Sequence record: ON075799
From: Escherichia phage vB_EcoM_TH18
Length of the DNA stretch: 64,000 nt
Reading direction: 5' to 3' (one strand)
How positions within the stretch are numbered: the first letter of the stretch is position 1; the number at the start of each line of letters is the position of its first letter. Under the pieces are notes generated by a model. It worked only from the letters and a program-made list of their open reading frames with translations. It searched no databases and was not told the origin of the DNA. Below, piece by piece: positions 18 through 63,444 of this stretch. Position numbers and translations under genes: made by a program.

Positions 18-94
18 TGGTGTGACGGACAGGATTCGAACCTGTGACCACCTAGTCTTCAGCAAGGCACTCTACCAACTGAGTTACCGTCACA
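18..94 (-). tRNA. tRNA-Phe (anticodon GAA)
   Basis: Hand-folded cloverleaf on minus strand: 7-bp acceptor, D-stem actc/gagt, anticodon loop CTGAAGA, T-loop GGTTCGAATCC, CCA encoded. Confidence 0.75.
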
Positions 95-98
95 TAAT

Positions 99-175
99 TG
101 GTGGGCGATGAGGGACTCGAACCCCCAAAATTCAGGTTCTAAGCCTGACATGTATACCAATTCCATCAATCGCCC
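99..175 (-). tRNA. tRNA, anticodon UAG (Leu-like decoding) but short variable loop; atypical
   Basis: Minus strand: acceptor gggcgat/atcgccc, anticodon stem tcagg/cctga with loop CTTAGAA, T-arm with TTCGAGT loop, CCA encoded; type-I length (77 nt) despite Leu-type anticodon. Confidence 0.55.
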
Positions 176-189
176 ATCTATATTAACAG

Positions 190-381
190 TTATGGTTTTC
201 CACGATACACAGAAATAGTTTTCCCATTAGCATTGATAACATAAGCGGTCTGATCCTCAGACAAAAACACTTTTTGATCAATGCCGGAAATAGCTATAGA
301 CTTTTGATGAGCACAATACCCAACAATTTTCCCACAAAAAATTTGTTCATCATTTGGAGAGACGACTTTAACTGTTAACAT
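190..381 (-). CDS. hypothetical small protein (63 aa; ORF 190-462 trimmed to internal ATG)
   Basis: Internal ATG at 381 preceded by AGAGGA; the longer ORF would overlap tRNA-Pro. Confidence 0.4.
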   Translation of the reverse strand: MLTVKVVSPNDEQIFCGKIVGYCAHQKSIAISGIDQKVFLSEDQTAYVINANGKTISVYRGKP

Positions 382-423
382 GGTATCCTCTGTACATTTC
401 TGCTTTGATATGTTTATGTTTGT

Positions 424-501
424 TGGTCTGTCCGGTTGGATTTGAACCAACGACCTGGTCATCCCAAGTGACCCGCGCTACCCAAGCTGCGCTACGGACA
501 G
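424..501 (-). tRNA. tRNA-Pro (anticodon UGG)
   Basis: Minus strand: acceptor ctgtccg/cggacag, D-stem gcgc/gcgc, anticodon stem ggtca/tgacc loop CTTGGGA, T-loop TTCAAAT, CCA encoded. Confidence 0.75.
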
Positions 502-585
502 AGAAATGTAGATTTTAATTGTCCCAGAATCTACTAACTGGTATCGCTGGCTAGGTGATATCTGTGACTTGATTAAGTCAAGAAT

Positions 586-677
586 TGGCGGTTCCTGAAG
601 GATTCGAACCTTCGGTGGGGAGATTCATTCCCAACGGCTTAACAGGCCGTCACCATCGACCACTCGGTCAAAGAACC
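586..677 (-). tRNA. tRNA, type II-like (long variable arm), anticodon loop CTGTTAA (GUU?); identity uncertain
   Basis: Minus strand: acceptor ggttctt/aggaacc, anticodon stem acggc/gccgt, extra stem-loop ggga-atgaatc-tccc, T-arm gaagg-TTCGAAT-ccttc, CCA encoded; 92 nt. Confidence 0.5.
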
Positions 678-686
678 TGAATATTT

Positions 687-763
687 TGGTGGATCTGGTT
701 GGGGTCGAACCAACAATCTCTCGATTAAAAGTCGAGTGACTTAAACCATTTGGCTACAAATCC
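687..763 (-). tRNA. tRNA-Lys (anticodon UUU)
   Basis: Minus strand: acceptor ggatttg/cagatcc, anticodon stem ctcga/tcgag loop CTTTTAA, T-arm gttgg-TTCGACC-ccaac, CCA encoded. Confidence 0.7.
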
Positions 764-780
764 GTTAAATTATCTTTAAA

Positions 781-810
781 ATAGCTAATTACTCGCACAT
801 AATTAGCTAT
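781..810. repeat. perfect 10-bp-stem hairpin (atagctaatt / aattagctat) in inter-tRNA spacer
   Basis: Exact inverted repeat with 10-nt loop read directly from sequence. Confidence 0.6.
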
Positions 811-996
811 ACGCAACAACTCTCCAAGGAGAGCACACTAATGATCGATTACGATTATATGACTAAATTTAGACCATCATAAGTGTTTGGCTTACGCCAG
901 TAAAGAGCGGACTGCTCTGGGGTATCGGTAAGATGGTTGCAGCCATCTACCGAAAAATCACACCAAGCAACTAAACAAGCTACATTAAAGATAACT

Positions 997-1085
997 TGGA
1001 GGAGGCTGACAGAATCGAACTGTCACCATATCTCTACAGCGGGACTGGGTTCAAACCAGCTTGTGCACCATGCACCCCAGCCTCC
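997..1085 (-). tRNA. tRNA-Ser (anticodon UGA)
   Basis: Minus strand: acceptor ggaggct/agcctcc, anticodon loop TTTGAAC, long variable arm, T-arm gacag-TTCGATT-ctgtc, CCA encoded; 89 nt. Confidence 0.7.
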
Positions 1086-1156
1086 AAAGATAGCCTCTGC
1101 CGAGGATATACACCCAACAAAGGAGGCGCTCAGGTCAGAAGAAATCTGAGCCTTAA

Positions 1157-1250
1157 TGGAGGAAGATGCCAGACTTGAACTGGCACACCCATTTCTGGGT
1201 TACTATCTCCTTAGCAGGGAGATCCCTTACCAAATTAGGGTTAATCTTCC
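1157..1250 (-). tRNA. tRNA-Ser (anticodon GCU)
   Basis: Minus strand: acceptor ggaagat/atcttcc, anticodon stem tctcc/ggaga loop CTGCTAA, long variable arm, T-arm gccag-TTCAAGT-ctggc, CCA encoded. Confidence 0.7.
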
Positions 1251-1271
1251 AATACCTTAGTAATTAAAAAC

Positions 1272-1361
1272 TGGTGGAGAAGGAGAGAATCGAACTCTCA
1301 AGCCGTTTTACCAGTCAGCACATTTCCAATGTGCTTTCGTCGCCAATCGATTTGCTTCTCC
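1272..1361 (-). tRNA. tRNA-Ser (anticodon GGA)
   Basis: Minus strand: acceptor ggagaag/cttctcc, anticodon stem gcaca/tgtgc loop TTGGAAA, long variable arm, T-arm gagag-TTCGATT-ctctc, CCA encoded. Confidence 0.65.
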
Positions 1362-1370
1362 GTTTTAACT

Positions 1371-1446
1371 TGGCAGGGGATGGTTGATTCGAACAACCGA
1401 TCACGGGGTCAAAGCCCGTTGCATTAGGCCACTATGCTAATCCCCT
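1371..1446 (-). tRNA. tRNA-Gln (anticodon UUG)
   Basis: Minus strand: acceptor aggggat/atcccct, D-stem gcat/atgc, anticodon stem acggg/cccgt loop CTTTGAC, T-loop TTCGAAT, CCA encoded. Confidence 0.7.
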
Positions 1447-1452
1447 TTTGCA

Positions 1453-1527
1453 CGAGAGTGAGGAATAGAACCTCTTAGTCACTGGTTTTGGAGGCCAGCC
1501 TTCACCCAGTGAAGTTACGCTACTCTC
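1453..1527 (-). tRNA. tRNA-Trp (anticodon CCA)
   Basis: Minus strand: anticodon loop CTCCAAA, T-arm with TTCTATT loop, acceptor gagagt/actctc; CCA not encoded. Confidence 0.6.
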
Positions 1528-1535
1528 ATTAAAAA

Positions 1536-2093
1536 CTATTTTCGAAAAGGACTTATGAAAAATGCCAACATCACTCTCTCTCTTGAAAAAGCTCTGTCTT
1601 CAGGAACCACACTCTTCAGTTTCCAACCGACATAAATTCGCCAGTAAAATTGTTTTCCAAACAATCTAAAAGACGGGACAAACGCGAATACACCCCACGC
1701 ATTGTCATTCCACATCAACAAATAGCCTTGTTGGTTATCCTCCACATCAGAGCTTACATGGAGGTTTCCTTTCCACTTTGTCACAGATGTGATTTCACGT
1801 CCAAGTACGTGATAGGAGAAATTGTAGGCTTTATTTCTCCACAACCAAGCAACTCGTTGTAGGTAAACACCAAAACTTCCTATTTTACGGACTTCTTCCC
1901 ATCTCTCTATGTGTCCTCTATCACCGTCTATAGGATTATCATATGTCTCCATCCACCTGAAAATATAAGGCAGATGCCCTGTCTTCTCATTATAGAACGG
2001 AACAACAAAAGGAGCCAGAATAACACAGAGAACCGACATAACTGGGTCAAGAGGTGCTAACAGGATCCACGATAAATATTTTAAGTATCTCAT
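1536..2093 (-). CDS. hypothetical protein (185 aa, aromatic-rich, hydrophobic N-terminus)
   Basis: Long ORF between tRNA sub-clusters; no recognisable motif. Confidence 0.5.
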   Translation of the reverse strand: MRYLKYLSWILLAPLDPVMSVLCVILAPFVVPFYNEKTGHLPYIFRWMETYDNPIDGDRGHIERWEEVRKIGSFGVYLQRVAWLWRNKAYNFSYHVLGREITSVTKWKGNLHVSSDVEDNQQGYLLMWNDNAWGVFAFVPSFRLFGKQFYWRIYVGWKLKSVVPEDRAFSRERVMLAFFISPFRK

Positions 2094-2320
2094 GCAGGAT
2101 CAAGCCTAGATATAATGTACTGGTTTAAATCTGAATATGGGAAGATACTTTCAAAGATAACCTGTTTAAATCTGAAGCCGCACAAACCGAAAAGTACCTT
2201 CTGACACTCACCAAAAGAGCAATCTTTACCAACTTTTATCACAACCGTATCGGCAATCTGCACACTTTCTATCTCTTTAGATTCATGATGCCGTACTATG
2301 ATTACTTTAGAAACCATCAT
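2090..2320 (-). CDS. hypothetical protein (76 aa)
   Basis: ORF whose stop overlaps the start of the downstream gene by 4 bp (translational coupling pattern). Confidence 0.4.
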   Translation of the reverse strand: MMVSKVIIVRHHESKEIESVQIADTVVIKVGKDCSFGECQKVLFGLCGFRFKQVIFESIFPYSDLNQYIISRLDPA

Positions 2321-2445
2321 ACTCGTCCATATTAAAGCCTTCTACTAAAGATAGTAGATGTCTAGGGTTGGACCGCAAACGCAACCCCATGGAATTTGTT
2401 ACGGTCTTCAGTTGACCCAAGCGGATTTCATTGACATCTTTTAAC

Positions 2446-2520
2446 TGGAGCATCCAGAGGGTATCGAACCCTCGACTTCAGCTTGGAAGGCTGTAGTTTT
2501 CCCAATTAAACTATGGATGC
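2446..2520 (-). tRNA. tRNA-Gly (anticodon UCC)
   Basis: Minus strand: acceptor gcatcca/tggatgc, D-stem gttt/aaac, anticodon loop CTTCCAA, T-arm gaggg-TTCGATA-ccctc, CCA encoded. Confidence 0.7.
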
Positions 2521-2525
2521 ATATT

Positions 2526-2601
2526 TGGTGGGAGTGGTAGGCTCTGCCCCTACGTCCTCTCGATTATCGGTCGAGCGATCTACTAACTGATCTACACTCC
2601 C
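2526..2601 (-). tRNA. tRNA-Ile-like (anticodon GAU), atypical T-loop
   Basis: Minus strand: acceptor gggagtg/cactccc, D-stem gatc/gatc, anticodon stem ctcga/tcgag loop CCGATAA, T-stem gtagg/cctac but loop GGCAGAG lacks TTC; CCA encoded. Confidence 0.5.
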
Positions 2602-2665
2602 AAACTGTACTGGCCCAACAACCACGATTGGAGGGTATCGTCACACATCAAAGCCAGTACAGTTT
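2602..2665. repeat. 13-bp-stem hairpin (aaactgtactggc / gccagtacagttt, 38-nt loop) filling the spacer between two tRNAs
   Basis: Exact inverted repeat read from sequence; no T-loop, so not a tRNA. Confidence 0.55.
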
Positions 2666-2669
2666 TAGT

Positions 2670-2759
2670 TGGTGTGCCGTGATAGAGTCGAACTACCCGA
2701 GTCCCTTTCGAGACAGGAGATTTACAGTCTCCCCCGCTACCCCTACGGTCTAACGACAC
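2670..2759 (-). tRNA. tRNA-Tyr (anticodon GUA), type II
   Basis: Minus strand: acceptor gtgtcgt/acggcac (one G-U), anticodon stem ggaga/tctcc loop CTGTAAA, long variable region, T-arm ggtag-TTCGACT-ctatc, CCA encoded; D-arm irregular. Confidence 0.6.
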
Positions 2760-2760
2760 A

Positions 2761-3108
2761 TTAACCTTGTTTGAATTGAACAATATCCGTCGAGAACGGT
2801 TTAGCTGCCTTAATAGGTGCTTTTTCTGAGTTATCTTTTTCGAGTAACTCTTCGTTTTCCTCATCAAAGTAATCAGAAAGCATCTGCTCACCTTTCTCAA
2901 TAACATAACGAGCTATATTTTCTCTGATATTGTCTTTTGTATTCACATTCTTCATCAAATCCCTAAGAACCTGATGAGCTTCAGGAATCATTGCAATCAG
3001 ATTCGTTTTTAAATCTAGGATATTTTTCTCTAACTGAATTGCATTAGATTCCTCTTTCAGAGGACGACCTTTTCCTCTTCTACGTTTTGTAAGCTGCTTA
3101 GTAGCCAT
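2761..3108 (-). CDS. hypothetical protein (115 aa from internal ATG; acidic C-terminal half)
   Basis: ORF 2761-3333 trimmed to the Met at 3108 because the upstream part overlaps tRNA-Cys. Confidence 0.45.
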   Translation of the reverse strand: MATKQLTKRRRGKGRPLKEESNAIQLEKNILDLKTNLIAMIPEAHQVLRDLMKNVNTKDNIRENIARYVIEKGEQMLSDYFDEENEELLEKDNSEKAPIKAAKPFSTDIVQFKQG

Positions 3109-3193
3109 TTTAAAACCCCACTTAATGATATTATCAAATAAAAACATATCTGTCAAGTGGTATTTTAACATATTTACCAAGAAATTGAAAGTT

Positions 3194-3270
3194 TGGAGCA
3201 CGGTGTCGGACTTGAACCGACATATATCTGTTTTGCAGACAGATCCGTAACCAAATTCCAGCAACCGTGC
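3194..3270 (-). tRNA. tRNA-Cys (anticodon GCA)
   Basis: Minus strand: acceptor gcacggt/accgtgc, anticodon stem tctgt/acaga loop CTGCAAA, T-arm with TTCAAGT loop, CCA encoded. Confidence 0.7.
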
Positions 3271-3356
3271 AATAAGTACCCCAGGTAGAGAACCTATAGA
3301 GTGGGTCTTACGAGCCGCGCTGACGATTCTCAAGTTGGGGTTAATCTGGTCGAGGA

Positions 3357-3433
3357 GACAGGATTCGAACCTGTGACCTACGGCTTAGAAGGCCGCTGCT
3401 CTATCCAACTGAGCTACACCCCGAAAATAAGAA
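3357..3433 (-). tRNA. tRNA-Arg (anticodon UCU)
   Basis: Minus strand: canonical D-arm tagctcagttggatagagc, anticodon stem gcggc/gccgt loop CTTCTAA, T-arm acagg-TTCGAAT-cctgt, CCA encoded. Confidence 0.7.
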
Positions 3434-3623
3434 TGCTTTATAGTGTATGGTTACTCAACCTCACTCCAACTTCCACAGTTGGTGCTCTACGAGCATGACT
3501 ACGTTTGAAATCAACGTTGCGCACCGATAGCTTTCTCACGCATTGTATGCCTCATTCCCAACAAATGCTGATCAGACATTTATATCGAATAATATAAGCT
3601 AATACACTATAAAACAAACTTGT

Positions 3624-3720
3624 GGCTGGGTGATGGAATCGAACCACCTATGTATTCAACGGCTTCCCCGTCTATTTTCAGGATTATAAATCCTCGCCCT
3701 TGCCAAAGGGCTTACCCAGC
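3624..3720 (-). tRNA. tRNA-like gene, unusually long (about 97 nt); anticodon loop TTTATAA (UAU?) with about 30-nt insertion before the T-arm
   Basis: Minus strand: acceptor gctgggt/acccagc, D-stem gccc/gggc, 4-bp anticodon stem agga/tcct, extra hairpin acgg-ggaag-ccgt, T-arm ggtgg-TTCGATT-ccatc; CCA not encoded. Confidence 0.4.
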
Positions 3721-3722
3721 AT

Positions 3723-3797
3723 TGGTGCTCGCAGCAGGTTTCGAACCTGCAACCCCCTGCTTACAAGGCAGGTGCTCTACCGTTGAGCTATACGAGC
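3723..3797 (-). tRNA. tRNA-Thr (anticodon UGU)
   Basis: Minus strand: acceptor gctcgta/tgcgagc, D-stem gctc/gagc, anticodon stem cctgc/gcagg loop CTTGTAA, T-arm gcagg-TTCGAAA-cctgc, CCA encoded. Confidence 0.75.
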
Positions 3798-4162
3798 AAT
3801 AAGACATTGCTTCCGATTAACAGCCTTGAGGCTTTACAGACCATATCTTGTGAGCCATAACCTGTGCCAAGGATTTCAGATGATAAACGAAATTTTATCT
3901 TTCAAGAGTCAACTTTCAAGTTTCATCTTTTACATTTAACCATTGACCTTTATTGTATGAACTTTTACTTAGTGGAAACAACAAGGCATCTTCGTGTGCC
4001 TCGCTGCATCTATGTCCTGTATTATCCTCATACATATACGATACATGGTGGGGGATATTTAACCTCCAACCCCCAGGAGGCAAGATGATGTAAACTTCGT
4101 TAATCAAAAGCAATGTTTTAAATTTCAAAACAAAGGAACGATAATGATATTATCAGAGCCTT

Positions 4163-4810
4163 TTAGAGAGAGTGCTCAATCTCAATTTCTGTCTTAGCGT
4201 TTGACTCAGACAACGCAAAATCAACGTTAGACAAGAAATCTTCAATCTCTTCTTCAAGAGAACGAATCTTAGAAGCCAGTTCAAGAGGATCCACAACCGA
4301 TGGTGTGTTCATCATTCGAATAGGAGCTTCCACAGTCTTAATCTGCTCTGCATCTGGCGCTTTATCACGTTGGATATATGGCGCTCTTGCATTTTCAAGT
4401 TTATCTTCCAGAGATTTTTCTTCTTTTGCCAGAAGAAGCTGTGCAGAAGCACGCTGTGCACAAAGTTTGTTTAACAACTCTTGTTTAAAGCAAATCGTCC
4501 GTTTGCGTTCGATTGCCTCAGCAACTGTCATAGACACATTACCAATTTTGACAATTGTCTCAGCATTAGACTTAACAATTTTTGCTTTCAGTTCATCACG
4601 CACTGCCAAGAGGTCTTGCAGACTTTGATAGTCGTTGATCGCAGATTTCTTAAAATCATCAACAGAGCCGATATAACCCGGAATCTTACAATTATTCTCA
4701 GTTCCTTTTGCAATCTTAATACAATCAAGATTGTAGATACGCTTATTGATCTTATCTTCAATTTTAGAGATAGAAGCAAGTGCACGAGTTACGGAAATCT
4801 TAGTAGACAT
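4163..4810 (-). CDS. hypothetical protein (215 aa, predicted coiled-coil, K/E-rich)
   Basis: Long ORF; composition only. Confidence 0.55.
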   Translation of the reverse strand: MSTKISVTRALASISKIEDKINKRIYNLDCIKIAKGTENNCKIPGYIGSVDDFKKSAINDYQSLQDLLAVRDELKAKIVKSNAETIVKIGNVSMTVAEAIERKRTICFKQELLNKLCAQRASAQLLLAKEEKSLEDKLENARAPYIQRDKAPDAEQIKTVEAPIRMMNTPSVVDPLELASKIRSLEEEIEDFLSNVDFALSESNAKTEIEIEHSL

Positions 4811-4883
4811 GCGATCTCTCCTATGTAAATCAGCTTTGATAAAGTAACTATCCAGAAAAACAAAAACTATGTCAAGAAAAATT

Positions 4884-5075
4884 TTAATCTTTTACAGCAT
4901 CTTTTATAGAATCACAAAGATCTTGAACAACATCAGATGTCGGTGACAAAATCATCTCGTCGGCTGCTGCTATAGCATCTGATGCTAAATCAACAAACGG
5001 AGTTGTTACCGCAGAAGTCACTTCAACAGCCGTTATTGTTACTTCGCTTGCAATCTTAAGCAAAGATCCTATCAT
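4884..5075 (-). CDS. hypothetical protein (63 aa)
   Basis: Small ORF downstream of the tRNA-Met gene. Confidence 0.3.
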   Translation of the reverse strand: MIGSLLKIASEVTITAVEVTSAVTTPFVDLASDAIAAADEMILSPTSDVVQDLCDSIKDAVKD

Positions 5076-5151
5076 AATCTCAACCCTCCTGAATATCCGT
5101 GATTCCCTTTATTTAACGACGCTGGCTCACGGTGGCACTCTCGTCAATAAA

Positions 5152-5475
5152 CTATTTTTTAGTTTTCTTACCGTTTTCTACAGAAATGCTTGTTTTCTGT
5201 TTCGCTTCTCGTTCGCGCTTTGTTTTCCCAGTGCGAATACGATATGAAGCAGAAATAACTTCACCACCAATGACACGAGACACAGATTCGTAATACATTT
5301 CAGTATTACCGTCTTCATCTTTGCGTTTTTTCAGAACTGCTACAGTTTGCGTTTTACCACCAAGGCGCACATCGTGCGGTGCAGAATGTGTCTGCGTGGA
5401 TTTTGATCCAAACTGAAAAGGTTGCTTTATCGCCTCGATAGCTGACACCTTTTTAGCAGACTGTTTCTTAGCCAT
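5152..5475 (-). CDS. hypothetical basic protein (107 aa from internal ATG, Lys-rich)
   Basis: Internal ATG at 5475 preceded by GGAGG; Lys-rich termini. Confidence 0.45.
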   Translation of the reverse strand: MAKKQSAKKVSAIEAIKQPFQFGSKSTQTHSAPHDVRLGGKTQTVAVLKKRKDEDGNTEMYYESVSRVIGGEVISASYRIRTGKTKREREAKQKTSISVENGKKTKK

Positions 5476-5527
5476 TAAGTTTTCTCCTCCGAAAACAATA
5501 AACATAGTTTATTTCGTGTGCCACATT

Positions 5528-5604
5528 TGGTGGCCCCTGCTGGACTTGAACCAGCGACCAAGCGATTATGAGTCACCTGCTCTATCCAACTGAGCTAAGG
5601 GGCC
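5528..5604 (-). tRNA. tRNA-Met (anticodon CAU; elongator-type or Ile2-type)
   Basis: Minus strand: acceptor ggcccct/aggggcc (G1-C72 paired), canonical D-arm, anticodon loop CTCATAA, T-arm gctgg-TTCAAGT-ccagc, CCA encoded. Confidence 0.7.
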
Positions 5605-8229: not shown

Positions 8230-8292
8230 GATCTCAACCCTCCAACCTAAAAGCGTATTTTTTCACTAAAACGTATCTTTGTCAAGATGTAA

Positions 8293-28686: not shown

Positions 28687-29490
28687 TTATTCAAAATCAT
28701 CAACACCACTATCGGTAAGGTTTTCTCTGCTTGAAGGTTTTGTCGAAAGAACTTGCTCAAGCAGAGAGGAAAATTTCTGCAAATTACTTACAGAAGAAGT
28801 ACCTGCTGCCATGGCAAGCATATCCACTTCTTTTTCGGTAGGTTGAGCCCAGTCTAGAAACATCTCTTTCATGTACAACGTTGATGACCCTATTGGTGTG
28901 GCGAGGTCAACCCTATCAGCATAGATCCAGAAAAGAACCTCTTTCTCTATACATACACACAAAGCAGCACCCAACGAGTATCCTGTAACGATGGATGGAT
29001 ATCTTGCAACGAGGATCTCGACATTCAGGTCATCCCAGTGAAATACAACACCCAAATACTTCATACCCACAATGTCTTCCACTGCGGGTTTTAGCTCCTC
29101 ATGGGAAGAAAGGGAGTCATAGTTAATATTCTTTATGAATTTAAGAACGTCTTGGCGGTTGTAGGCACAATCGTTATCACCTTGCTTCCAATAACCCCAA
29201 AATGAAGTCGATAAATTCAACCAAAAACTTGCAGTTGTCCCTAATGTCTCAGCCAGTTTTTCAGCCACATCTTCTGATACTTCTTCCATGTTATAAAGGA
29301 TGGTTCTCAACTTATTTACCGGTATACCAGATTTGTCGGCAAGATCATCCACACACCAACCTAATGGATCTAGATATTCGTGGATAATAACCTCACCTGG
29401 TGATACTGGTGCTCTTTCTTTTAACATTCTTGCTCCTCTATCTATATCAGAAAACCCTGCAAAGCAGCAGGGTTCTGTCACTCTTAACAC
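28687..29490 (-). CDS. HigA/XRE-type helix-turn-helix domain protein with about 170-aa C-terminal domain of unknown function
   Basis: N-terminal segment SPGEVIIHEYLDPLGW...IPVNKLRTILYN...AEKLAETLGTTASFWLNLST matches the remembered HigA-antitoxin helix-turn-helix pattern. Confidence 0.55.
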   Translation of the reverse strand: MLRVTEPCCFAGFSDIDRGARMLKERAPVSPGEVIIHEYLDPLGWCVDDLADKSGIPVNKLRTILYNMEEVSEDVAEKLAETLGTTASFWLNLSTSFWGYWKQGDNDCAYNRQDVLKFIKNINYDSLSSHEELKPAVEDIVGMKYLGVVFHWDDLNVEILVARYPSIVTGYSLGAALCVCIEKEVLFWIYADRVDLATPIGSSTLYMKEMFLDWAQPTEKEVDMLAMAAGTSSVSNLQKFSSLLEQVLSTKPSSRENLTDSGVDDFE

Positions 29491-29687
29491 TTAGGTGAGC
29501 ATTTATCGCACGAACATGAAATTCCGTGGAAACACAATCCTGTCCCGTCTTTCTTGACCCCTGTTCCACCACACTGGGGACAACTATCGTGTAAACATTT
29601 TGTTTTTGTTGTCTCCTCTTTATCTTTATTAAAGAGGTTTTTCATAATCATTTTCTGTTGTTCAATCGTAAACATTTGCGTCCCCAA
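29484..29687 (-). CDS. Cys-rich small protein (67 aa, zinc-finger-like)
   Basis: C-x2-C and repeated Cys pairs (CPQCGG ... CFHGISCSCDKCSPKC). Confidence 0.45.
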   Translation of the reverse strand: MGTQMFTIEQQKMIMKNLFNKDKEETTKTKCLHDSCPQCGGTGVKKDGTGLCFHGISCSCDKCSPKC

Positions 29688-29968
29688 AATCTTTCAAGTG
29701 CTTCTGCCTCTTCCATGTTCGGGAAGATACCGTAGAAACAGAACTTACCTTTAGAGAAGTACGGAATAAATACCCGCCCATCACTGGTTTCAAACATCTT
29801 ATCAAAATTTGGTAGCTTCAGGTGTGATTTTATAGCCTCTTTAATACTTTTATCCCATTGATGCTGCCATTTACAGGCTTTTAGGTATTCACTAATATTG
29901 TAAGAACCTACTCTCCTCAAAATACTGGTGAGAAACTTTTTGTTTTTACGAATAATCTTCTTTTTCAC
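29648..29968 (-). CDS. hypothetical protein (106 aa); paralog of 29946-30251
   Basis: Shares N-terminal MKKK(I/L)xRxNKxFL(T/S) with the adjacent gene. Confidence 0.5.
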   Translation of the reverse strand: MKKKIIRKNKKFLTSILRRVGSYNISEYLKACKWQHQWDKSIKEAIKSHLKLPNFDKMFETSDGRVFIPYFSKGKFCFYGIFPNMEEAEALERFWGRKCLRLNNRK

Positions 29969-30251
29969 TCAAAAGCCTCATTTCTTCAAACTGCTCTGGT
30001 GTCAATAAACTTGTTCCTACACGACTGCCATTACCACACATAAGAGGTACGGCAATCATATGGCTATCCTTTTCTGCATTACCTAAATCAAGGTACTCCC
30101 CATAACGTTTGATAAGTCGAATGCTCATTTTTGAATTAGCTAAAGCCCTTGTGTTATAGAGATAATCCTCAAGGTACAAATGTAGATCGTTTGCCACCTT
30201 TAAAGATTTTGATAAGAATAATTTATTACGCCGTGCCAGTTTTTTCTTCAT
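29946..30251 (-). CDS. hypothetical protein (101 aa); paralog of 29648-29968
   Basis: Tandem duplicate by N-terminal similarity. Confidence 0.5.
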   Translation of the reverse strand: MKKKLARRNKLFLSKSLKVANDLHLYLEDYLYNTRALANSKMSIRLIKRYGEYLDLGNAEKDSHMIAVPLMCGNGSRVGTSLLTPEQFEEMRLLSEKEDYS

Positions 30252-30444
30252 ACACCCCTCGCTTGTGCCTGTACATTGCCAGAGGCCATACAGAACTCAC
30301 TATAAAGCATTTCCATGCCCAACCCCATGCAGTTTTTGGTGCATAGACCTGTTCAAGTGTTTTACTATTCTCCATCTCTGCGGTATGCACAAACCATACC
30401 GCAATATACAATGTAACTGTAATGTAGATAAAGCTATTAATCAT
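30226..30444 (-). CDS. small membrane protein (72 aa)
   Basis: Hydrophobic segments. Confidence 0.4.
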   Translation of the reverse strand: MINSFIYITVTLYIAVWFVHTAEMENSKTLEQVYAPKTAWGWAWKCFIVSSVWPLAMYRHKRGVYEEKTGTA

Positions 30445-31498
30445 TCATCTTATCCCAACACATTTGTTGCGCTGTCATCAAGACGTCAGCAGCAAAATCA
30501 AGGTCTGTTGACTTCGGTAAATGCGTGCTCTTGTACAGAGTGTTACGAATATAATCATCCTTCTCTTCTGCCCAAGCCAAGAGCTTCTCCAAAGACCATG
30601 CACCATTCCTGATTGCAAGAAGCTCCTGAGCATCAGGTCTTTTTACTAAGACTTTACCTTCTGCTAGGATCTCCTCAGCCATACGCATCAATCTTACCAA
30701 ATGGAGAGCATGTTTGCAATCGTACCCGTACTTTTCTTCTAAGTCATGCCGAACCAGATTTCTGTTTTTAACCCATGCCCAGTAGTTCTTATGTTTTTCC
30801 TTTGCTTGTTTATGCTCCTCTGCCAGATATTTAACAATTAAAATTGGCTTACGTCTCTTATCCTCGTCAGAGAACTGCTCGTAAGGAACTTTACGAATAG
30901 AACCATCAGAGTTAAACAAGCCAGCATTGTCGTGTGTTCCGATCACGCCATAGATATTATCACCCATGGGTAAAAAGACACACAACTTGTTAAGATCATC
31001 CAACATTTTCTGGAAGTCTTTGTGTTTTGTAAGATTATCATCCATCCACGAGTGTGTCAAGCGCATGAACTCTTTTTGTGTTGGTTGCTCTTTAGGTTGC
31101 GGGTTATTAATCCATTTATTATGGCCTTTGATACGCTTAAGTTGCGCCATCGCATACCCAGAAAAAGTAAAAGCAACTTTGCTGGATAGGAGTTTTGGCG
31201 CTTGCTCGCGTAGGTACTCGTAAACATCTGAAGTTTGCAGAATGTCACCTCTATCAACAAACATAAGCTCGATGATGTTTGGGTTCATATCAACGAACAA
31301 CTTCATGTAGTTTGTTAGCTCATACAGCTTACCATCCTCTTCATCAATAAGGGTCATTTCTCTGTCAACGAAAAATGGGGTAAGAATGCTTTTAGGCTCT
31401 GCACAATAAATTCCGCGAATATCCACATCGGATGTTGGTAAGTTAGTTCCATATGCAATGCTGCCGGAGTAACAGCGCATTAGTTCTAGTTTCTTCAT
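30437..31498 (-). CDS. nucleotidyltransferase-fold protein (Pol-beta superfamily, GS...DxD motif), 353 aa
   Basis: N-terminal YSGSIAYGTNLPTSDVDIRGIY matches the minimal nucleotidyltransferase signature; substrate unknown. Confidence 0.5.
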   Translation of the reverse strand: MKKLELMRCYSGSIAYGTNLPTSDVDIRGIYCAEPKSILTPFFVDREMTLIDEEDGKLYELTNYMKLFVDMNPNIIELMFVDRGDILQTSDVYEYLREQAPKLLSSKVAFTFSGYAMAQLKRIKGHNKWINNPQPKEQPTQKEFMRLTHSWMDDNLTKHKDFQKMLDDLNKLCVFLPMGDNIYGVIGTHDNAGLFNSDGSIRKVPYEQFSDEDKRRKPILIVKYLAEEHKQAKEKHKNYWAWVKNRNLVRHDLEEKYGYDCKHALHLVRLMRMAEEILAEGKVLVKRPDAQELLAIRNGAWSLEKLLAWAEEKDDYIRNTLYKSTHLPKSTDLDFAADVLMTAQQMCWDKMND

Positions 31499-31857
31499 TC
31501 TCGTACCTTTGTGCTTTTTCTTACATTATCCCAAAAATCAAGGATATTTTGGTATCGGATCTTGTCTTCCATATATTCAGCCTCATCACGAAGATCGCAT
31601 ACATGGTCTATTAAGGCACACACTTCATTATAGTGTTCTGTATCACTTGTGATGTGCTTAATCATACAAGATCCTGCTTTCCACTTTGAAAGTGAGTATC
31701 TCAGATTATCATCTTTCTCTGTGGGGGACGCGTCAACTAATATTTTTGCCTTATTGCCTTTTATCTTTTGTACCACCCCTCTGCGCAATTCATTATTACC
31801 CCAATAGATAAATACTGTATCGCCAACAAACAGTTTTGTTCCGCTTGCGTCTCTCAT
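31495..31857 (-). CDS. hypothetical protein (120 aa)
   Basis: ORF coupled to the downstream gene. Confidence 0.5.
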   Translation of the reverse strand: MRDASGTKLFVGDTVFIYWGNNELRRGVVQKIKGNKAKILVDASPTEKDDNLRYSLSKWKAGSCMIKHITSDTEHYNEVCALIDHVCDLRDEAEYMEDKIRYQNILDFWDNVRKSTKVRE

Positions 31858-31858
31858 T

Positions 31859-32203
31859 TTAAGACCCTAGTAAGAAGAAATAATAAATGGTTATTGCTGC
31901 AAAGTAAGTAATCCCGCTCAATAACCCAAACCAACATTGCTTGGCAGTATAAACTTTCTCTGACAAAAGATTATTCCCTGCTACAATATGCCTACACAAC
32001 CAAACTCCCATCAAGAATCCACCTATTAAGCCACCCGTCGGAGGTGTTAACATGGTGATCATTGCAAGACCTTCAAGCAAAGAGAATATTAAAAAACATG
32101 GGAATGCTTTTCTTTTACATTTAAAACCTTTTCCATCGACACAAACTTTGGCTAGGCTTGCTATGCAAAAGACCGTCCAAAGCACATACAATGTATAAAC
32201 CAT
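31859..32203 (-). CDS. membrane protein (114 aa)
   Basis: Multiple hydrophobic segments. Confidence 0.5.
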   Translation of the reverse strand: MVYTLYVLWTVFCIASLAKVCVDGKGFKCKRKAFPCFLIFSLLEGLAMITMLTPPTGGLIGGFLMGVWLCRHIVAGNNLLSEKVYTAKQCWFGLLSGITYFAAITIYYFFLLGS

Positions 32204-32267
32204 AATCCACTTAACCTTCGAATGTTAACCTCTCCTATTCTATCAGAGAGGTTTCAAAAATGATCTA

Positions 32268-32765
32268 CTACTCACCTTTTAGCTTAAAACTTTTCAACGT
32301 TTTGATAAAGTCTTTCTCTGCTGGTGTGTAAGTGTGAACTAAACCTGTTTCTTCACAGGTGTAGGTATCATTAACCTCCATTGCATGTTGAGGGATAAAT
32401 GTACCTTCAGGAACAGGCTTATATTCTGGGTTGTAGATAAACTCCGGCAGCACAACAGCCACAGCAGTCATTGCTCCATTCAAGGCTTCCTCTTCTTCAC
32501 GCCACCAAGCATATGGATAAGTTTTGAGAGGCATAAGTTGAGCAAGAAAATCTTGGAGTACTGACTGATAACCACCATTTAAAATAATGATGGTCTTATC
32601 TTTTTCTCTCCAACATTTCAACCAGTGGTGTGCGGTTAACTCCTCTGGCGCTCCTGCTGGTTGGTCATACCATGTCATGAGTTCCGCAATAGCATGTGCC
32701 GATTGGATACCTGCATGGATACCGGAGATATACTGATTAACAACACAATACATTCTTGTTTTCAT
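32268..32765 (-). CDS. hypothetical protein, possible PTH2-like peptidyl-tRNA hydrolase fold (165 aa)
   Basis: Weak motif resemblance (GIHAGIQSAHAIAE versus remembered PTH2 GKxAAQCSHAA); needs a profile search. Confidence 0.35.
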   Translation of the reverse strand: MKTRMYCVVNQYISGIHAGIQSAHAIAELMTWYDQPAGAPEELTAHHWLKCWREKDKTIIILNGGYQSVLQDFLAQLMPLKTYPYAWWREEEEALNGAMTAVAVVLPEFIYNPEYKPVPEGTFIPQHAMEVNDTYTCEETGLVHTYTPAEKDFIKTLKSFKLKGE

Positions 32766-33043
32766 TTTTCTTTCTTCCTAAAGATTATTCTATCTTCACT
32801 AAAAATTTCCTGTAACCCAGCAGCTATCAGTGCAAATATTGCTACCCACCATACAACTAACAGGAGTACCCCAACAAGCAAATCTCTACCTGTGATCTGT
32901 TGCTCAACCCTGTAGGTAATAATAAAGAAAGCTACGGATACTAAAGCACCAACAAAGAAGTAGATAAACACTTCAGTCATTATCTCTTTTCTCCAAGTAC
33001 CTTTTTTACCATAAGGGCCACAACGTAAATTCCCACAAGACAA
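32762..33043 (-). CDS. membrane protein (93 aa)
   Basis: Hydrophobic segments. Confidence 0.45.
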   Translation of the reverse strand: MSCGNLRCGPYGKKGTWRKEIMTEVFIYFFVGALVSVAFFIITYRVEQQITGRDLLVGVLLLVVWWVAIFALIAAGLQEIFSEDRIIFRKKEK

Positions 33044-33291
33044 ATCCAGAATGTGAAAATAATAGGTAAAAGCATTACCGCAAGCGTTATAAACAGTGGT
33101 CCTGCAACAGTGACGAATGCTGTTCCAAGCAACAACAAAAATACTACATATCTAACCGTTTCATCCACCTTCTTAAGATACACACCTAAACACACAGAAG
33201 ACAATAGGAATGATAGAATGGACAGCAACAGATACCAATTATCAATGAAAATGACAATTGGACTAGCAACATTTTCTAACCACCACATCAT
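32980..33291 (-). CDS. membrane protein (103 aa)
   Basis: Hydrophobic segments. Confidence 0.45.
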   Translation of the reverse strand: MMWWLENVASPIVIFIDNWYLLLSILSFLLSSVCLGVYLKKVDETVRYVVFLLLLGTAFVTVAGPLFITLAVMLLPIIFTFWICLVGIYVVALMVKKVLGEKR

Positions 33292-33305
33292 ATATTCATA
33301 CCTCT

Positions 33306-34562
33306 TTAGAATAACATATCCCTGCTAATTGCTTTACGAATAGCATCAATACGGGCTACTCGCACAGCTTCACCAATCTCTTTACCCTTCTTACCTTTTT
33401 CCAGAAGAGGGTTTGTGATAGCTTTAGAATCAACTTTTGTCATAGCGTCATAGGCTTCCAACAAAATATGACCTTGAAGGTAAGGTTTATGCCTAAAATC
33501 ACCACCTCTTCCTTTAGCATCACAATAACATGCATCTGCAAGTGTGTAAACCTTCATTTTCTGATCAGCTTGTCCAGCAGCTTCAAATATTTTCATGATG
33601 CTTTTTGGTTTCAAACCGTTGTTACCATCTGTGGGAGAGATGGCGTGCACTTTTGTGTGATTTTCTGCAACATATTTTGCCGTGTCACGATAGATATTAT
33701 AAATCTTTAACCTTTCGCACAAAGATTGGATAACATCCGCACCAGCTTTTTCATGACCATGCAAATTACCATTGTTCTTGTAAGTTACAGCTTTGCCAAA
33801 ATCATGGCAAAGCACAGCAAACTTGGTCAGTGGATCAGCTTCTAATTCATCGGCAACCCGTAACGCTAGAATTGTATGAGTGTAAGCATCCCCTTCTGGG
33901 TGGTGTTCTTTAGGTTGTTGTACACGACGCAGGGCTTCCAGTTCAGGAAGCTCGCCAATACGTCCCATATTGACAGCAAAAGATCTGAAATAATCACTCT
34001 TTAAGGCTTTCAACATTTCATTCCATTTACGCTCGGCGCTTATTTCTGCCAAAGAGTGTCGGTTGTCATAAGCCAGTTTAAAAGTCTCTGGGTGGATATG
34101 CCATTCTTCCCCAAGCTGGGCTTTAAATCTAAACAGGCGTAGAATACGTAACGGGTCTTCAATAAATGCCTGTGATGTATGACGTAATGTTTTAAGTCCT
34201 AAATCAACCTGGCCACCAAAAGGATCAATAATCTCACCACTGTCAACATCCATCGCCATGGAGTTGATGGTTAGATCTCTACGTGCCAAATCCTCTTCCA
34301 GAGTTACATCTGGGCTAAAGCATACCTCAAATCCTTTATGGCCTTCGCCTGTTTTTCTTTCTGTGCGTGCAAGAGCGTACTCTTCTTTTGTTTCTGGGTG
34401 AAGATAAACTGGAAAAGATGCGCCAACTTGTGTGAACCCTCTTTTCAACATCTCTTCATGCGTAGCTCCAACAACAACATAATCACGGTCTGATAATTCA
34501 CGACCCAATAATTTATCTCTAACCGCCCCACCTACCAAATATACCTTCATTTCTTCACCCAC
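33306..34562 (-). CDS. cca: tRNA nucleotidyltransferase (CCA-adding enzyme) with HD domain
   Basis: YLVGGAVRD and RRDLTINS motifs of class II nucleotidyltransferases; C-terminal HD-like histidines; 418 aa. Confidence 0.85.
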   Translation of the reverse strand: MGEEMKVYLVGGAVRDKLLGRELSDRDYVVVGATHEEMLKRGFTQVGASFPVYLHPETKEEYALARTERKTGEGHKGFEVCFSPDVTLEEDLARRDLTINSMAMDVDSGEIIDPFGGQVDLGLKTLRHTSQAFIEDPLRILRLFRFKAQLGEEWHIHPETFKLAYDNRHSLAEISAERKWNEMLKALKSDYFRSFAVNMGRIGELPELEALRRVQQPKEHHPEGDAYTHTILALRVADELEADPLTKFAVLCHDFGKAVTYKNNGNLHGHEKAGADVIQSLCERLKIYNIYRDTAKYVAENHTKVHAISPTDGNNGLKPKSIMKIFEAAGQADQKMKVYTLADACYCDAKGRGGDFRHKPYLQGHILLEAYDAMTKVDSKAITNPLLEKGKKGKEIGEAVRVARIDAIRKAISRDMLF

Positions 34563-34873
34563 ATGTTCATATAATTAACAATATCTTTTATGGTTCTCTT
34601 GCCGTCCAGTGGATAAACCATGTCATCGCTCATCCCACCGTGTTTTAGCATTGCTACCAGCCTAGTATATACCCCTTTTGGTCTTTTGCAAGTTCTTTTC
34701 TTCCATTTATGACCGTCTGGGGAGTACTCCTTATCTTCAAGAGAGATATGAAGTATATCTCCTATAAACTCTTTTGCCTGTGTGCTGTAAAGTGGACGGT
34801 AGAATATGTAGAATTTCATCGCTTGCTCCTTTGTTGTAATAACAATACCAGTGCAAGCCACCTGTGTCAACAC
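34547..34873 (-). CDS. hypothetical protein (108 aa or shorter)
   Basis: ORF only. Confidence 0.45.
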   Translation of the reverse strand: MLTQVACTGIVITTKEQAMKFYIFYRPLYSTQAKEFIGDILHISLEDKEYSPDGHKWKKRTCKRPKGVYTRLVAMLKHGGMSDDMVYPLDGKRTIKDIVNYMNMWVKK

Positions 34874-34908
34874 ATAAAGAAAAACCCGCTAAAAAGCGGG
34901 TTAATCTC

Positions 34909-40993: not shown

Positions 40994-41092
40994 TGGTTGA
41001 TGAAACGAGTTTGTCAGATAATCTCTTTCGATTAATCCTGGGTATGCTTCTTTAAGTTTTGTGGCAAATTTATAACACAGAGATTCTGCCGA

Positions 41093-60967: not shown

Positions 60968-61375
60968 CTATTGTAATTTTAAAGAGTTACGTAAACGTGC
61001 TTCTTGACGGTCACGAATAAACTGCGGAACAGCATGAATGCTTTCGTTGCCATGATAATTTTCCACAACAACAGATGTTACATCATAGCAGTACTTTTCT
61101 GCTAAGTCAAGATAAGGTTTCAACTCTTTCACAGAAGTTGTTGTGTTTGAAACAATAATCTTTTCAACTCCATTTTGCATATGGAGTTCTACCTTGTCAC
61201 GACACCATTGATGAGCTTTGTGGACATTTTCTTCCTTCCACTCATACACACCTTCTTCGGTGTAATGAAATTGGTCAGCTTCACATACAGGCCAACGACC
61301 ATCATCAGACAACTCTTTAGCAAGAGTTGACTTTCCTGACCCAGAGACACCACGTAAAATAAATAACTTTTTCAT
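60968..61375 (-). CDS. P-loop polynucleotide 5'-kinase-like protein (Pnk kinase-domain-like)
   Basis: Walker A GVSGSGKST at the N-terminus; 135 aa; resembles the kinase domain of T4 Pnkp from memory. Confidence 0.5.
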   Translation of the reverse strand: MKKLFILRGVSGSGKSTLAKELSDDGRWPVCEADQFHYTEEGVYEWKEENVHKAHQWCRDKVELHMQNGVEKIIVSNTTTSVKELKPYLDLAEKYCYDVTSVVVENYHGNESIHAVPQFIRDRQEARLRNSLKLQ

Positions 61376-61385
61376 TAGTTTCCCT

Positions 61386-61718
61386 TTAGTATTGGTGACG
61401 ATAAAACTTTATACCTAGAGTGTTTCCAAAATATTCTCTCGCCAACATAAACTTGTTCACGGCAGATGGGTTAGAGCTATGTACGTGAATTTCTTTAAGA
61501 TTCATGAACTTGCCATCGTGCAATTCACGTTCAACATAGAGGAAAGCATCATAACCTTCCTCATCACCACCCAAATCATTATCAAAATGAATGGAATCAA
61601 TGTCACTATCACTCATAAATTTTAGTAATGAGTAGAAGCTGGAGAGATTCTTACACCATATGGCATTAGGGTATCCATAATCTACTGGATTTCGCAGATC
61701 ATCCAACCACAGTCTCAA
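61386..61718 (-). CDS. hypothetical protein (110 aa)
   Basis: ORF between the kinase and ligase genes. Confidence 0.45.
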   Translation of the reverse strand: MRLWLDDLRNPVDYGYPNAIWCKNLSSFYSLLKFMSDSDIDSIHFDNDLGGDEEGYDAFLYVERELHDGKFMNLKEIHVHSSNPSAVNKFMLAREYFGNTLGIKFYRHQY

Positions 61719-62647
61719 ATTGCACCTCCGAAAAAATCCTCAATAATTTCACGACGGAATTGTTCATGCAAACATTCCCAATGTTCTTTAGAATAGTTAT
61801 CACGTAAATAATTTAAAAGGTTATAATACTCTTCATCAACTTTCTTCTTAGCTTCTTCTGGGTTTCCCCAAATCATATCCCACTTGTTCTTACCGCCACG
61901 CATCAAAAATTTCTTCGCCAAATAGTGTGGCGATTTGATCTTCAAGAGAAGATCTTGCTGTCCTGTAGCAGCACGCACAACAAATCCTTCATGTTTGCAT
62001 TCTTTAGACATTTTCAGGATGTCTGAAAAGTGCATATTTATGTAAATCTCTGGTCGTTTAAAACCGAACTCTTTTGCGATAAGATCAAGAGCTTTTTCAC
62101 TAAGCATAGAAGTTAATTTGTCTTTGTGAAATCGAACACCAATCAAATACACACCAGCCTTTTCTGGTACAATGTGTGGATCTGAAGGAGAGCAAATCTC
62201 AAAGATAAATGTTGTCTTTGGTTCTTCCACACATGATAACAACATTGGCAAATTAGTACATTCTGCCATGATCATACCTTTTGCAAGTTTTGCAAAATCG
62301 GAATCTAAAGTTCCTGTTGTTGAAACAATCAGCTCACCATTGTATGAGCTTACTGCTGCCATAAAGCCATTAACTTTACGTGCTGCATTCACAACCATAT
62401 CTTTTGGAAGATCAGTACCGTTCTCTAAATGGTTGAAAATTTTAGTAAAAGGCCACACAATGATGTTGTCATCACTGTCAACAACCATACCACGGCAATC
62501 AAGCAACCGACTATCTTGACACCACAGATTTTCCCAGAAAACTTTATTGCTGTATTTCAAAACAGACAAACCTTTAAACTCACCACTGGTATAAGTCTTC
62601 TTTTTAACAAGACCTTTTGATACTAAATCTTCAACATTGAATTTCAT
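61715..62647 (-). CDS. RNA ligase-like nucleotidyltransferase (putative)
   Basis: Motif I KVNG, motif IV EGFVVR, motif V LLKIKS; 310 aa; distinct from the DNA ligase at 58892. Confidence 0.5.
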   Translation of the reverse strand: MKFNVEDLVSKGLVKKKTYTSGEFKGLSVLKYSNKVFWENLWCQDSRLLDCRGMVVDSDDNIIVWPFTKIFNHLENGTDLPKDMVVNAARKVNGFMAAVSSYNGELIVSTTGTLDSDFAKLAKGMIMAECTNLPMLLSCVEEPKTTFIFEICSPSDPHIVPEKAGVYLIGVRFHKDKLTSMLSEKALDLIAKEFGFKRPEIYINMHFSDILKMSKECKHEGFVVRAATGQQDLLLKIKSPHYLAKKFLMRGGKNKWDMIWGNPEEAKKKVDEEYYNLLNYLRDNYSKEHWECLHEQFRREIIEDFFGGAI

Positions 62648-62844: not shown

Positions 62845-62865
62845 TCATAAAATCTCAATAATTAT

Positions 62866-63444
62866 TCAATGACCATCAGCAGTGAAAATGTCTTTTTCCA
62901 TGCACATTTGGTATGCTTCTGGTAGATCCAAAATTCTCCCATGTACATCCCAACCCACATCAAGGATCCGCCCTTTCGCACTGTAAGATCCGTGGCAATG
63001 ACCGTGCAAGAATACAGACCCATAGTGAGATTTATTCCACGCGGCAAACGGGTAATGACTCATACAAATTTTTTGTTCATAATCGTTAAATTCGTAATAA
63101 TCGCACACATCATGACCACGTTTTTTGAATGTTTTAATCGCATCAAAATTGTCATGATTGCCTTTGACAAGGACGATATGCCCCACAAGTTCATCAAGAA
63201 TTTCTTCAAGTCTTTTAATAACTTGCTTGCCATGACCGAAACAGAAATCACCAAGCACAAAAGTCACAGTGTCAGCATTTGCGCCGTGGTTAAATTTCAC
63301 TGTGAGGTCTTGGTTCATTTGTTCAACGGTTTTGTACAAATCACCACGAAAACGTTTTGAACTCTCAAAGTTCAGGATGTTTTTATGCCAGTAATGTAAA
63401 TCAGATGTTACACGGTATTTAGTTCCCATTTCTCTCTCCCACAC
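62866..63444 (-). CDS. calcineurin-like metallophosphoesterase (phosphatase)
   Basis: Motifs SDLH, GDFCFGHG, GNHD, HGHCHG. Confidence 0.8.
   Translation of the reverse strand: MWEREMGTKYRVTSDLHYWHKNILNFESSKRFRGDLYKTVEQMNQDLTVKFNHGANADTVTFVLGDFCFGHGKQVIKRLEEILDELVGHIVLVKGNHDNFDAIKTFKKRGHDVCDYYEFNDYEQKICMSHYPFAAWNKSHYGSVFLHGHCHGSYSAKGRILDVGWDVHGRILDLPEAYQMCMEKDIFTADGH

Follow-up and report, generated by a model that had tools for sequence, protein, structure and literature searches.

A predicted RlaP-type nucleotidyltransferase and a putative tRNA-repair gene set in the coliphage vB_EcoM_TH18

Why would a phage that encodes a CCA-adding enzyme carry a second, different nucleotidyltransferase, and on what would that protein act? 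The question is raised by a gene of Escherichia phage vB_EcoM_TH18 (sequence record ON075799), of which we analysed a stretch of 64,000 nucleotides, hereafter the window. The gene occupies positions 30437..31498 on the minus strand, starts with ATG and encodes 353 amino acids (aa) followed by a stop; the translation of this open reading frame (ORF) begins with MKKLELMRCYSGSIAYGTNLPTSDVDIRGIY. A reading made earlier from the letters of the sequence alone (the original prediction) had delimited the ORF with the same start and described its product as a Pol-beta superfamily nucleotidyltransferase of unknown substrate. The ORF listing, Pfam, PHROGs and homologue searches agree with it on the ORF and on the superfamily, and allow the protein (hereafter the NTase) to be placed with great confidence in the RlaP (PF10127) family. 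We propose that the NTase probably adds one or a few nucleotides to the 3'-OH of RNA without a template, filling nuclease-damaged tRNA before ligation.

To which family does the NTase belong? In Pfam, residues 7-123 matched PF10127, entitled 'RlaP, RNA repair pathway DNA polymerase beta family', with 50.7 bits against a cut-off of 23 (E 2.6e-13). The match spans profile positions 22-140 of 249 only, and positions 141-249 are unmatched. In PHROGs, phrog_388 'nucleotidyltransferase' covers residues 5-351 (E 1.3e-76). RlaP stands for "RNA ligase-associated Pol-beta", a name that comes from the genomic association of the family with RNA ligases, and the family was reportedly defined by Burroughs and Aravind in 2016. 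No sequence match to the NTase was found among the solved structures of the PDB. Meanwhile, the PolyA_pol head domain (PF01743), RNA-binding domains and HD domains were not matched in the NTase by Pfam. These domains are present in the class II CCA-adding enzyme of the window, which belongs to the same superfamily, lies in the same gene block and acts on RNA 3'-OH ends, as we propose for the NTase. The NTase is therefore not a CCA enzyme, and the lack of a PolyA_pol head domain bears out the earlier view that the window holds two distinct nucleotidyltransferases.

Homologues of the NTase numbered 3072 in a word-indexed search of a set of 5.8 billion proteins, and an exhaustive search yielded 5480 cluster representatives. 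Among phages, 385 records carried a homologue, including PVP-SE1, Klebsiella Mydovirus, Certrevirus, rV5-like phages and the RaK2/121Q jumbo phages. The orthologue in Av-05 is already labelled 'nucleotidyltransferase' in RefSeq. Cellular homologues of the clade were found in Myxococcota, Cyanobacteria and Planctomycetota, with identities of 29-38%. One ENA protein of 403 aa (P0082) displayed 89% identity to 57% of the NTase, yet the Pfam domains precomputed for it, CAT_RBD and PRD, are those of a BglG-type antiterminator; the assembly or the gene call is probably chimeric.

The active site is well preserved in these relatives. The nucleotidyltransferase signature G12-S13 ... D24-x-D26 lies in GSIAYGTNLPTSDVD (31421..31465, minus strand), and its four residues were invariant in all of the 54 close homologues and in all of the 62 more distant ones, down to ~31% identity. 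The Pfam and PHROGs matches and the number of homologues take the GS ... DVD signature of the original prediction far beyond chance. The third catalytic carboxylate would be D55 (31334..31336, minus strand), which is conserved in at least 90% of the 62 homologues. In profile comparison this residue lines up with a conserved Asp of canonical RlaP, and it also lines up with an Asp of the minimal NTase MntA. Since D55 aligns with the RlaP residue and the RlaP family has three strictly conserved aspartates (bioRxiv 10.64898/2025.12.29.696909), D24/D26/D55 is the predicted catalytic triad of the TH18 NTase. The original prediction had named the absence of an acidic triad as the finding that would speak against it; all three residues are present and conserved.

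How closely does the NTase resemble the RlaPs that have been characterised? A profile of canonical RlaP was made from sequences collected with the canonical half of P0251 as query, a tandem protein of 631 aa in which a canonical full-length RlaP (PF10127, 317 bits) forms the N-terminus and a phage-type NTase occupies residues 297-614. Compared by hhalign, the phage-type family matched this profile with 97.7% probability (E 2e-12) over residues 4-155 only, and it matched NrdC.11 of phage RB43 with 99.5% probability (E 1e-22) over 297 columns, essentially the whole length. Because the alignment to canonical RlaP is partial and that to NrdC.11 is full-length, the NTase and the T4-type NrdC.11 proteins are grouped, as far as sequence comparison goes, in a phage-rich clade of the RlaP superfamily. 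The NTase displays the features by which we recognise this phage-type clade, namely full-length homology that includes a C-terminal bundle with R246-N..R250, D260-x-K262 and R269. NrdC.11 and ORF005 of RaK2 show the same N-terminal-only Pfam match as the TH18 protein, and in the phage search the match of T4-type NrdC.11 proteins to the NTase was likewise confined to the N-terminus. The T4 NrdC.11 orthologue has also been placed in the RlaP network, within cluster 5 of a sequence similarity network (SSN) (bioRxiv 10.64898/2025.12.29.696909).

The canonical bacterial RlaPs (PfRlaP and PaRlaP, of the Pseudomonas rtcB-rlaP-rtcA operons) share with the NTase a homologous NTase domain and the helix that follows it, along with the motifs GS, S-D-x-D-x-R, the third Asp, (Y/W)(E/D)LxK and NPxxxE. 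Both appear to be laid out in two lobes, an NTase domain and a helical domain, and in both cases the genome also encodes RNA ligases and end-healing enzymes. The TH18 protein differs in being ~90 residues longer, in having an insert and a bundle with no aligned counterpart in the C-terminal half of canonical RlaP, and in lying outside any ligase operon. Its C-terminal module thus appears specific to the phage clade. The T4-type NrdC.11 proteins (e.g. ORF131c of RB43) are also products of phage accessory genes and are homologous over the full length, C-terminal bundle included, but their identity to the NTase is ~20-27%. The jumbo-phage RlaPs (RaK2 ORF005, 121Q gp506) belong to the same clade, with 35% identity over the full length.

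A confident AlphaFold model, for which 54 sequences were used (pLDDT 92.3, pTM 0.76), divides the protein into three parts. The first, residues 1-131 (31106..31498, minus strand), contains the catalytic domain and a long helix (residues 108-131); here lie the matches to PF10127 and canonical RlaP. The second, residues 132-225 (30824..31105, minus strand), consists of a linker and an alpha/beta insert and varies among homologues. The insert spans approximately residues 140-225 and has five strands, including 145-150, 173-179, 182-187 and 220-224; in the exhaustive search, many homologues matched the NTase in two stretches, jumping over it. The third part, residues 226-353 (30440..30823, minus strand), is a helical bundle with a HEPN/KNTase-C-like fold, common to NrdC.11 and not aligned to canonical RlaP. 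The original prediction had envisaged a roughly 250-aa helical region after the signature. Its helical character stands for the bundle (226-352), but helices are not its sole content, as the long helix and the alpha/beta insert come first. The alignment to canonical RlaP ends at residue 155, and the C-terminal part of the NTase forms a helical bundle in the model; the crystal structure of PfRlaP has a C-terminal helical domain, the last helix of which packs back on the NTase domain (bioRxiv 10.64898/2025.12.29.696909).

A minimal Pol-beta core followed by a HEPN/KNTase-C-like helical domain is also the layout of Hailong HalB, kanamycin nucleotidyltransferase and MNT-HEPN, which suggests two other activities for the NTase. 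It could be a HalB-like oligonucleotide synthase, or a maker of nucleotide signals, that serves as a decoy against defence systems such as Hailong. We regard this as very improbable. The structural likeness to HalB and MntA goes no further than the generic minimal-NTase fold, no significant sequence relationship links the NTase to any of these proteins, and the profiles place it in PF10127, not in HalB. None of the defence-system models of PADLOC matched the NTase at E up to 1, and the exonuclease fusions and tRNA context described below point elsewhere. The known substrates of these look-alikes differ as well, being dATP (which is oligomerised), aminoglycosides and proteins, respectively. The other activity would be that of an MNT-type protein AMPylase, which could neutralise host HEPN RNase toxins or regulate the HEPN-like C-terminal domain of the NTase itself. 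The bundle contains a string, R246-N-L-V-R-H251, that resembles the Rx4-6H motif of HEPN RNases, and R246 and N247 are conserved among the 62 homologues. H251 is not conserved among them, which rules out a HEPN RNase active site at this position. In addition, bacterial RlaPs left proteins unlabelled, and NCBIfam gave no meaningful match, with its MntA model (NF047752) reaching 12.2 bits against a cut-off of 60. We therefore give AMPylation almost no credence. Among the activities that the original prediction had listed as candidates, tRNA metabolism is the one favoured, whereas protein AMPylation and cyclic-oligonucleotide synthesis lack specific support, given the absence of a PADLOC match and the generic nature of the HalB/MntA likeness.

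The gene content of the homologues provided insights into the parts of the protein that matter and the kind of substrate it may use. The bundle carries a conserved basic/acidic block, R246-N-x-x-R250 ... D260-(T/C)-K262-H ... R269 (30692..30763, minus strand), in which R246, N247, R250, D260, K262 and R269 form a conserved charged surface that probably binds NTP phosphates or RNA. About 14 homologues (P0121, P0122, P0125, P0126, P0132, P0134, P0155, P0183, P0193, P0201, P0227, P0250, P0257 and P0261) displayed an insertion of 310-350 aa exactly between D260 and T/C261, within the invariant motif GYD(T/C)KH. The insertion of P0122 contains a LAGLIDADG domain, and P0132 has a second break near residue 130. 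The size of these insertions, their position in an invariant motif and the nucleophile at +1 are typical of inteins, which they probably are, and an insertion of this type marks the motif as functionally critical. Meanwhile, six of the 150 top cluster representatives (P0147, P0164, P0169, P0182, P0203 and P0230 (L089:4238-6262)), carried on short, uninformative contigs, displayed the NTase fused to a C-terminal 3'-5' exonuclease of the RNase T-type DEDD family (PF00929). The fusion of an enzyme that would extend 3' ends to one that would trim them argues against protein or small-molecule substrates, and these predicted architectures indicate a nucleic-acid 3' end as the substrate of the NTase. 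Another homologue, P0224, has a 170-aa N-terminal extension of no characterised kind.

Which nucleic acid, and which reaction? Two Pseudomonas RlaPs add one or two nucleoside monophosphates (NMPs), or dNMPs, to the 3'-OH of RNA (Carruthers, Fatma and Huang, bioRxiv 10.64898/2025.12.29.696909). They prefer Mn2+, have little specificity for the NTP, use neither DNA nor protein as a substrate, and favour the 5' half of a nicked tRNA mimic; moreover, RlaP partly restores the aminoacylation of a tRNA missing one nucleotide of the anticodon loop when it acts before ligation (bioRxiv 10.64898/2025.12.29.696909). At the family level, then, the substrate is no longer as obscure as the original prediction had it, since bacterial PF10127/RlaP members add NMPs to RNA 3'-OH ends. 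RlaP is also the most prevalent accessory NTase in jumbo phages, where its distribution mirrors that of RNA ligases, and its predicted task is to put back, ahead of ligation, the nucleotides that nucleases like RloC have taken out (Iyer et al. 2021, PMC7824862). In T4, nrdC.11 lies in a fragment lost from a viable genome-reduced phage and is hence dispensable in the laboratory, which fits an accessory, counter-defence role.

Based on these findings, we postulate the following course of events during infection. Host anticodon nucleases would cut tRNA and perhaps also trim it. The ends would be healed by the phosphoesterase, cREC protein and P-loop kinase of the phage. The NTase, using D24/D26/D55 and two divalent metal ions, would then add one or a few NMPs to the 3'-OH of the broken RNA, restoring the nucleotides lost on the 3' side of the break, and a ligase of the Rnl1 or Rnl2 type would seal the filled tRNA. 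Meanwhile, the adjacent CCA-adding enzyme and a PTH2-like hydrolase would look after the acceptor end. Family membership, conserved catalytic residues, fold, gene context and domain fusions are shown here for the NTase and its homologues; that it acts on RNA, how many nucleotides it would add and that it serves tRNA repair are suggested by homologues and context.

Does the phage encode the partners that such a pathway would need? When the remainder of the window was surveyed with Pfam and then scanned in a targeted way, a healing-and-sealing cassette emerged at 60968-63444, contiguous, on the same (minus) strand as the NTase, and 'hypothetical' in the deposited records. It comprises a calcineurin-type phosphoesterase, a candidate 3'-end healing enzyme (62866..63444; PF00149 (Metallophos), E 4.3e-8); an Rnl1-type RNA ligase (61715..62647; PF09511, E 1.2e-17, 64.9 bits against a cut-off of 28.3); a cREC cyclic-phosphate-processing receiver domain protein (61386..61718; PF20274, E 1.7e-15); and a small P-loop kinase (AAA_33, GVSGSGKS), a candidate RNA 5'-kinase (60968..61375; PF13671, E 4e-10). 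In Vequintavirinae such as GAP31, and in further myoviruses such as phi92, relatives of this ligase bear the name RNA ligase 1. Av-05 and the second record of phage 24-2-1 also encode a ligase of the Rnl2 type (PF09414), as do five other phages that have the NTase, namely PVP-SE1, BIS47, Mydo, Hena1 and SSBI34; with the Av-05 protein as query, no Rnl2-type match was found in the 64-kb window. In addition, ARAGORN detected an array of 15 tRNA genes at the left end of the window (18..5604, minus strand). Collectively, these genes predict that the phage has every component of a heal-fill-seal pathway.

Several points weigh against the repair role. The NTase adjoins neither ligase: in the window ~30 kb separate it from Rnl1, and in Av-05 the Rnl2 gene lies ~59 kb away. 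Among 598 flanking ORFs clustered from 80 loci of cellular homologues there was no recurrent neighbour family and no recurrent ligase, and the second-largest cluster was made up of antisense ORFs overlapping the NTase gene itself. The label 'ligase-associated' therefore holds at the level of the genome, not of the operon. The insert and C-terminal bundle that lie beyond the segment alignable to canonical RlaP (residues 4-155) are clade-specific, and substrate choice could therefore differ from that of canonical RlaP. Our literature search found no experimental work on the phage-type/NrdC.11 clade. Finally, RlaP biochemistry comes from one unreviewed preprint of December 2025, and the biological model put forward there, in which RNA is repaired after 'smart' ribotoxins, is a proposal too (bioRxiv 10.64898/2025.12.29.696909).

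Another explanation is that the NTase is a general RNA-tailing enzyme whose poly(A)- or poly(N)-like tails would promote the decay or stabilisation of host or phage transcripts, unrelated to repair. In total RNA, species of rRNA and tRNA size are labelled by bacterial RlaPs whichever NTP is supplied, the phage-type clade has no operonic link to ligases, and the NTase lies in an early-type block beside host-takeover genes, all of which would suit such an activity. However, the characterised members stop after one or two additions, Pfam found in the NTase none of the domains for RNA binding or processivity that poly(A) polymerases typically have, and the phage has a complete healing-and-sealing kit together with a tRNA array. 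We consider tailing quite improbable; as with HalB-like synthesis and MNT-like AMPylation, nothing specific supports it.

What do the immediate neighbours of the gene suggest? The start codon of the NTase gene overlaps by 4 nt the stop of the upstream gene, and its 3' end overlaps by 8 nt the start of the downstream gene; the gene therefore sits inside a tightly packed leftward operon. It is part of a long leftward series of small genes that follows a sigma-70-like promoter match. Directly upstream, and apparently translationally coupled, is the gene of a small DUF7205 protein (31495..31857, minus strand) that is conserved in Avunavirus and Mydovirus. Further upstream on the same strand are a PTH2-fold (peptidyl-tRNA hydrolase-like) protein (32268..32765) and the class II CCA-adding enzyme (33306..34562), in which Pfam recognised a PolyA_pol head and an RNA-binding domain and which also has an HD domain, confirming that the window encodes a canonical enzyme of this kind. 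A terminator-like hairpin and then the best sigma-70-like promoter match (34842..34902, minus strand) sit just upstream of the CCA gene, and a consensus scan found no comparable minus-strand terminator between this promoter match and ~28.8 kb. These consensus matches fit a single early-type CCA-PTH2-NTase transcription unit with a candidate start at 34842..34902. The order CCA enzyme, PTH2-type hydrolase, small ORF(s), NTase is kept in three genera of Vequintavirinae (Avunavirus, Mydovirus and Certrevirus), whereas this synteny was not found in the jumbo phage RaK2 or in RB43.

This arrangement raises the possibility that the NTase acts on the acceptor (3'-CCA) end of tRNA, together with the CCA enzyme and the PTH2-like hydrolase, resetting ends truncated, blocked or mis-extended by host toxins. 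These two genes are its sole conserved synteny and may share a transcription unit with it, both ligases are distant, and the C-terminal module peculiar to the clade could give the enzyme another preference among RNAs. RNase T trims the CCA ends of tRNA, and the RNase T-type exonuclease fusions recall this kind of 3'-end turnover. Against this, the CCA enzyme can rebuild CCA ends by itself, so that a second, non-specific nucleotidyltransferase would seem redundant or even harmful. The characterised RlaPs chose the internal break over the acceptor end of the nicked tRNA mimic, and the CCA/PTH2 synteny is absent in RaK2 and RB43. Action at the acceptor end is the leading rival of the repair role but, in our judgement, unlikely. 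We are equally reserved about an extension of this idea, in which the phage-type/NrdC.11 clade would be a distinct enzyme, steered to acceptor ends by its insert and HEPN-like bundle and forming a 'tRNA 3'-end reset' module with the CCA enzyme, the PTH2-like hydrolase and DUF7205. If true, this would be a previously undescribed module countering host toxins that truncate, mis-extend or acylate acceptor ends. The filling of nuclease-damaged tRNA before ligation is still the role that we favour.

Other neighbours of NTase genes deserve mention. In RB43, the gene directly upstream of nrdC.11, ORF132c (L008:3615-3995), encodes a small protein that matches 'Phage ProQ C-terminal-like domain' (PF24203, E 3e-17) and might be an RNA-binding partner, whereas the neighbours in TH18 are DUF7205, PTH2 and the CCA enzyme. 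DUF7205 occupies the same position as this ProQ-C-like protein, and the idea that the two are related was not supported, as hhalign gave a probability of 4% only. Downstream of the NTase, the adjacent ORFs at 29648-29968 and 29946-30251 (minus strand; 106 and 101 aa) both match phrog_12809 and have in common the N-terminal sequence MKKK..RKNK.FL, as though a gene of no known function had been duplicated in tandem. Five genes downstream of the NTase, a protein of 267 aa (28687-29490, minus strand) resembles HTH_3 weakly at its N-terminus and matches phrog_1381 'plasmid antitoxin with HTH domain' (HigA-like) strongly.

The window comes from an Av-05-like coliphage (Vequintavirinae, Avunavirus). 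Positions 29000-34600 (5.6 kb) are 100% identical to Escherichia phages 18-1-2, 19-1-2 and 24-2-1, as are positions 38000-62900 (24.9 kb), and the former region is ~91% identical to Av-05. The window and Av-05 are collinear only to ~38 kb. Past this point Av-05 has tail-fibre genes, unlike the TH18 window, which has genes of nucleotide metabolism and repair; this reflects either a genome rearrangement or a difference in the Av-05 assembly. Beside the RNA-repair cassette, a Pfam scan detected a SIR2-family protein (60174-60959, minus strand) and an ATP-dependent DNA ligase (58892-60181, minus strand). Genes of NAD+ salvage, encoding an NAPRTase and a PRPP-synthetase-like protein, lie at 6514-9102 (minus strand), and in Av-05 two macro-domain proteins are found near the Rnl2 ligase. 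The NAPRTase, PRPP-synthetase-like, SIR2 and macro-domain proteins point to a counter-defence theme centred on NAD+ and ADP-ribose. The anaerobic ribonucleotide reductase NrdD (40613-43260, minus strand) is split over three gapped ORFs with three Pfam NRDD matches, which suggests introns, homing-endonuclease insertions or a fragmented gene.

The cleavage of tRNA is a widespread anti-phage strategy, which phages answer with tRNAs of their own and with repair enzymes. The RlaP family and its occurrence in phages are already published, and in this respect the present advance is incremental. Four features have, to our knowledge, not been described before: the C-terminal module specific to the clade, the fusions to exonucleases, the hot spot of intein-type insertions and the synteny with the CCA and PTH2 genes. 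Based on our findings, the labels 'nucleotidyltransferase' and 'hypothetical protein' in Vequintavirinae could become 'RlaP-family RNA 3'-nucleotidyltransferase (predicted)'. TH18 would be a medium-sized coliphage with an unusually complete kit: its tRNA array is accompanied by a CCA enzyme and a PTH2-like hydrolase, by the RlaP-type NTase and enzymes that would heal RNA ends, and by two RNA ligases. Such a phage could provide a convenient E. coli model for the still-unproven rescue by RlaP of tRNAs from nucleotide-excising nucleases.

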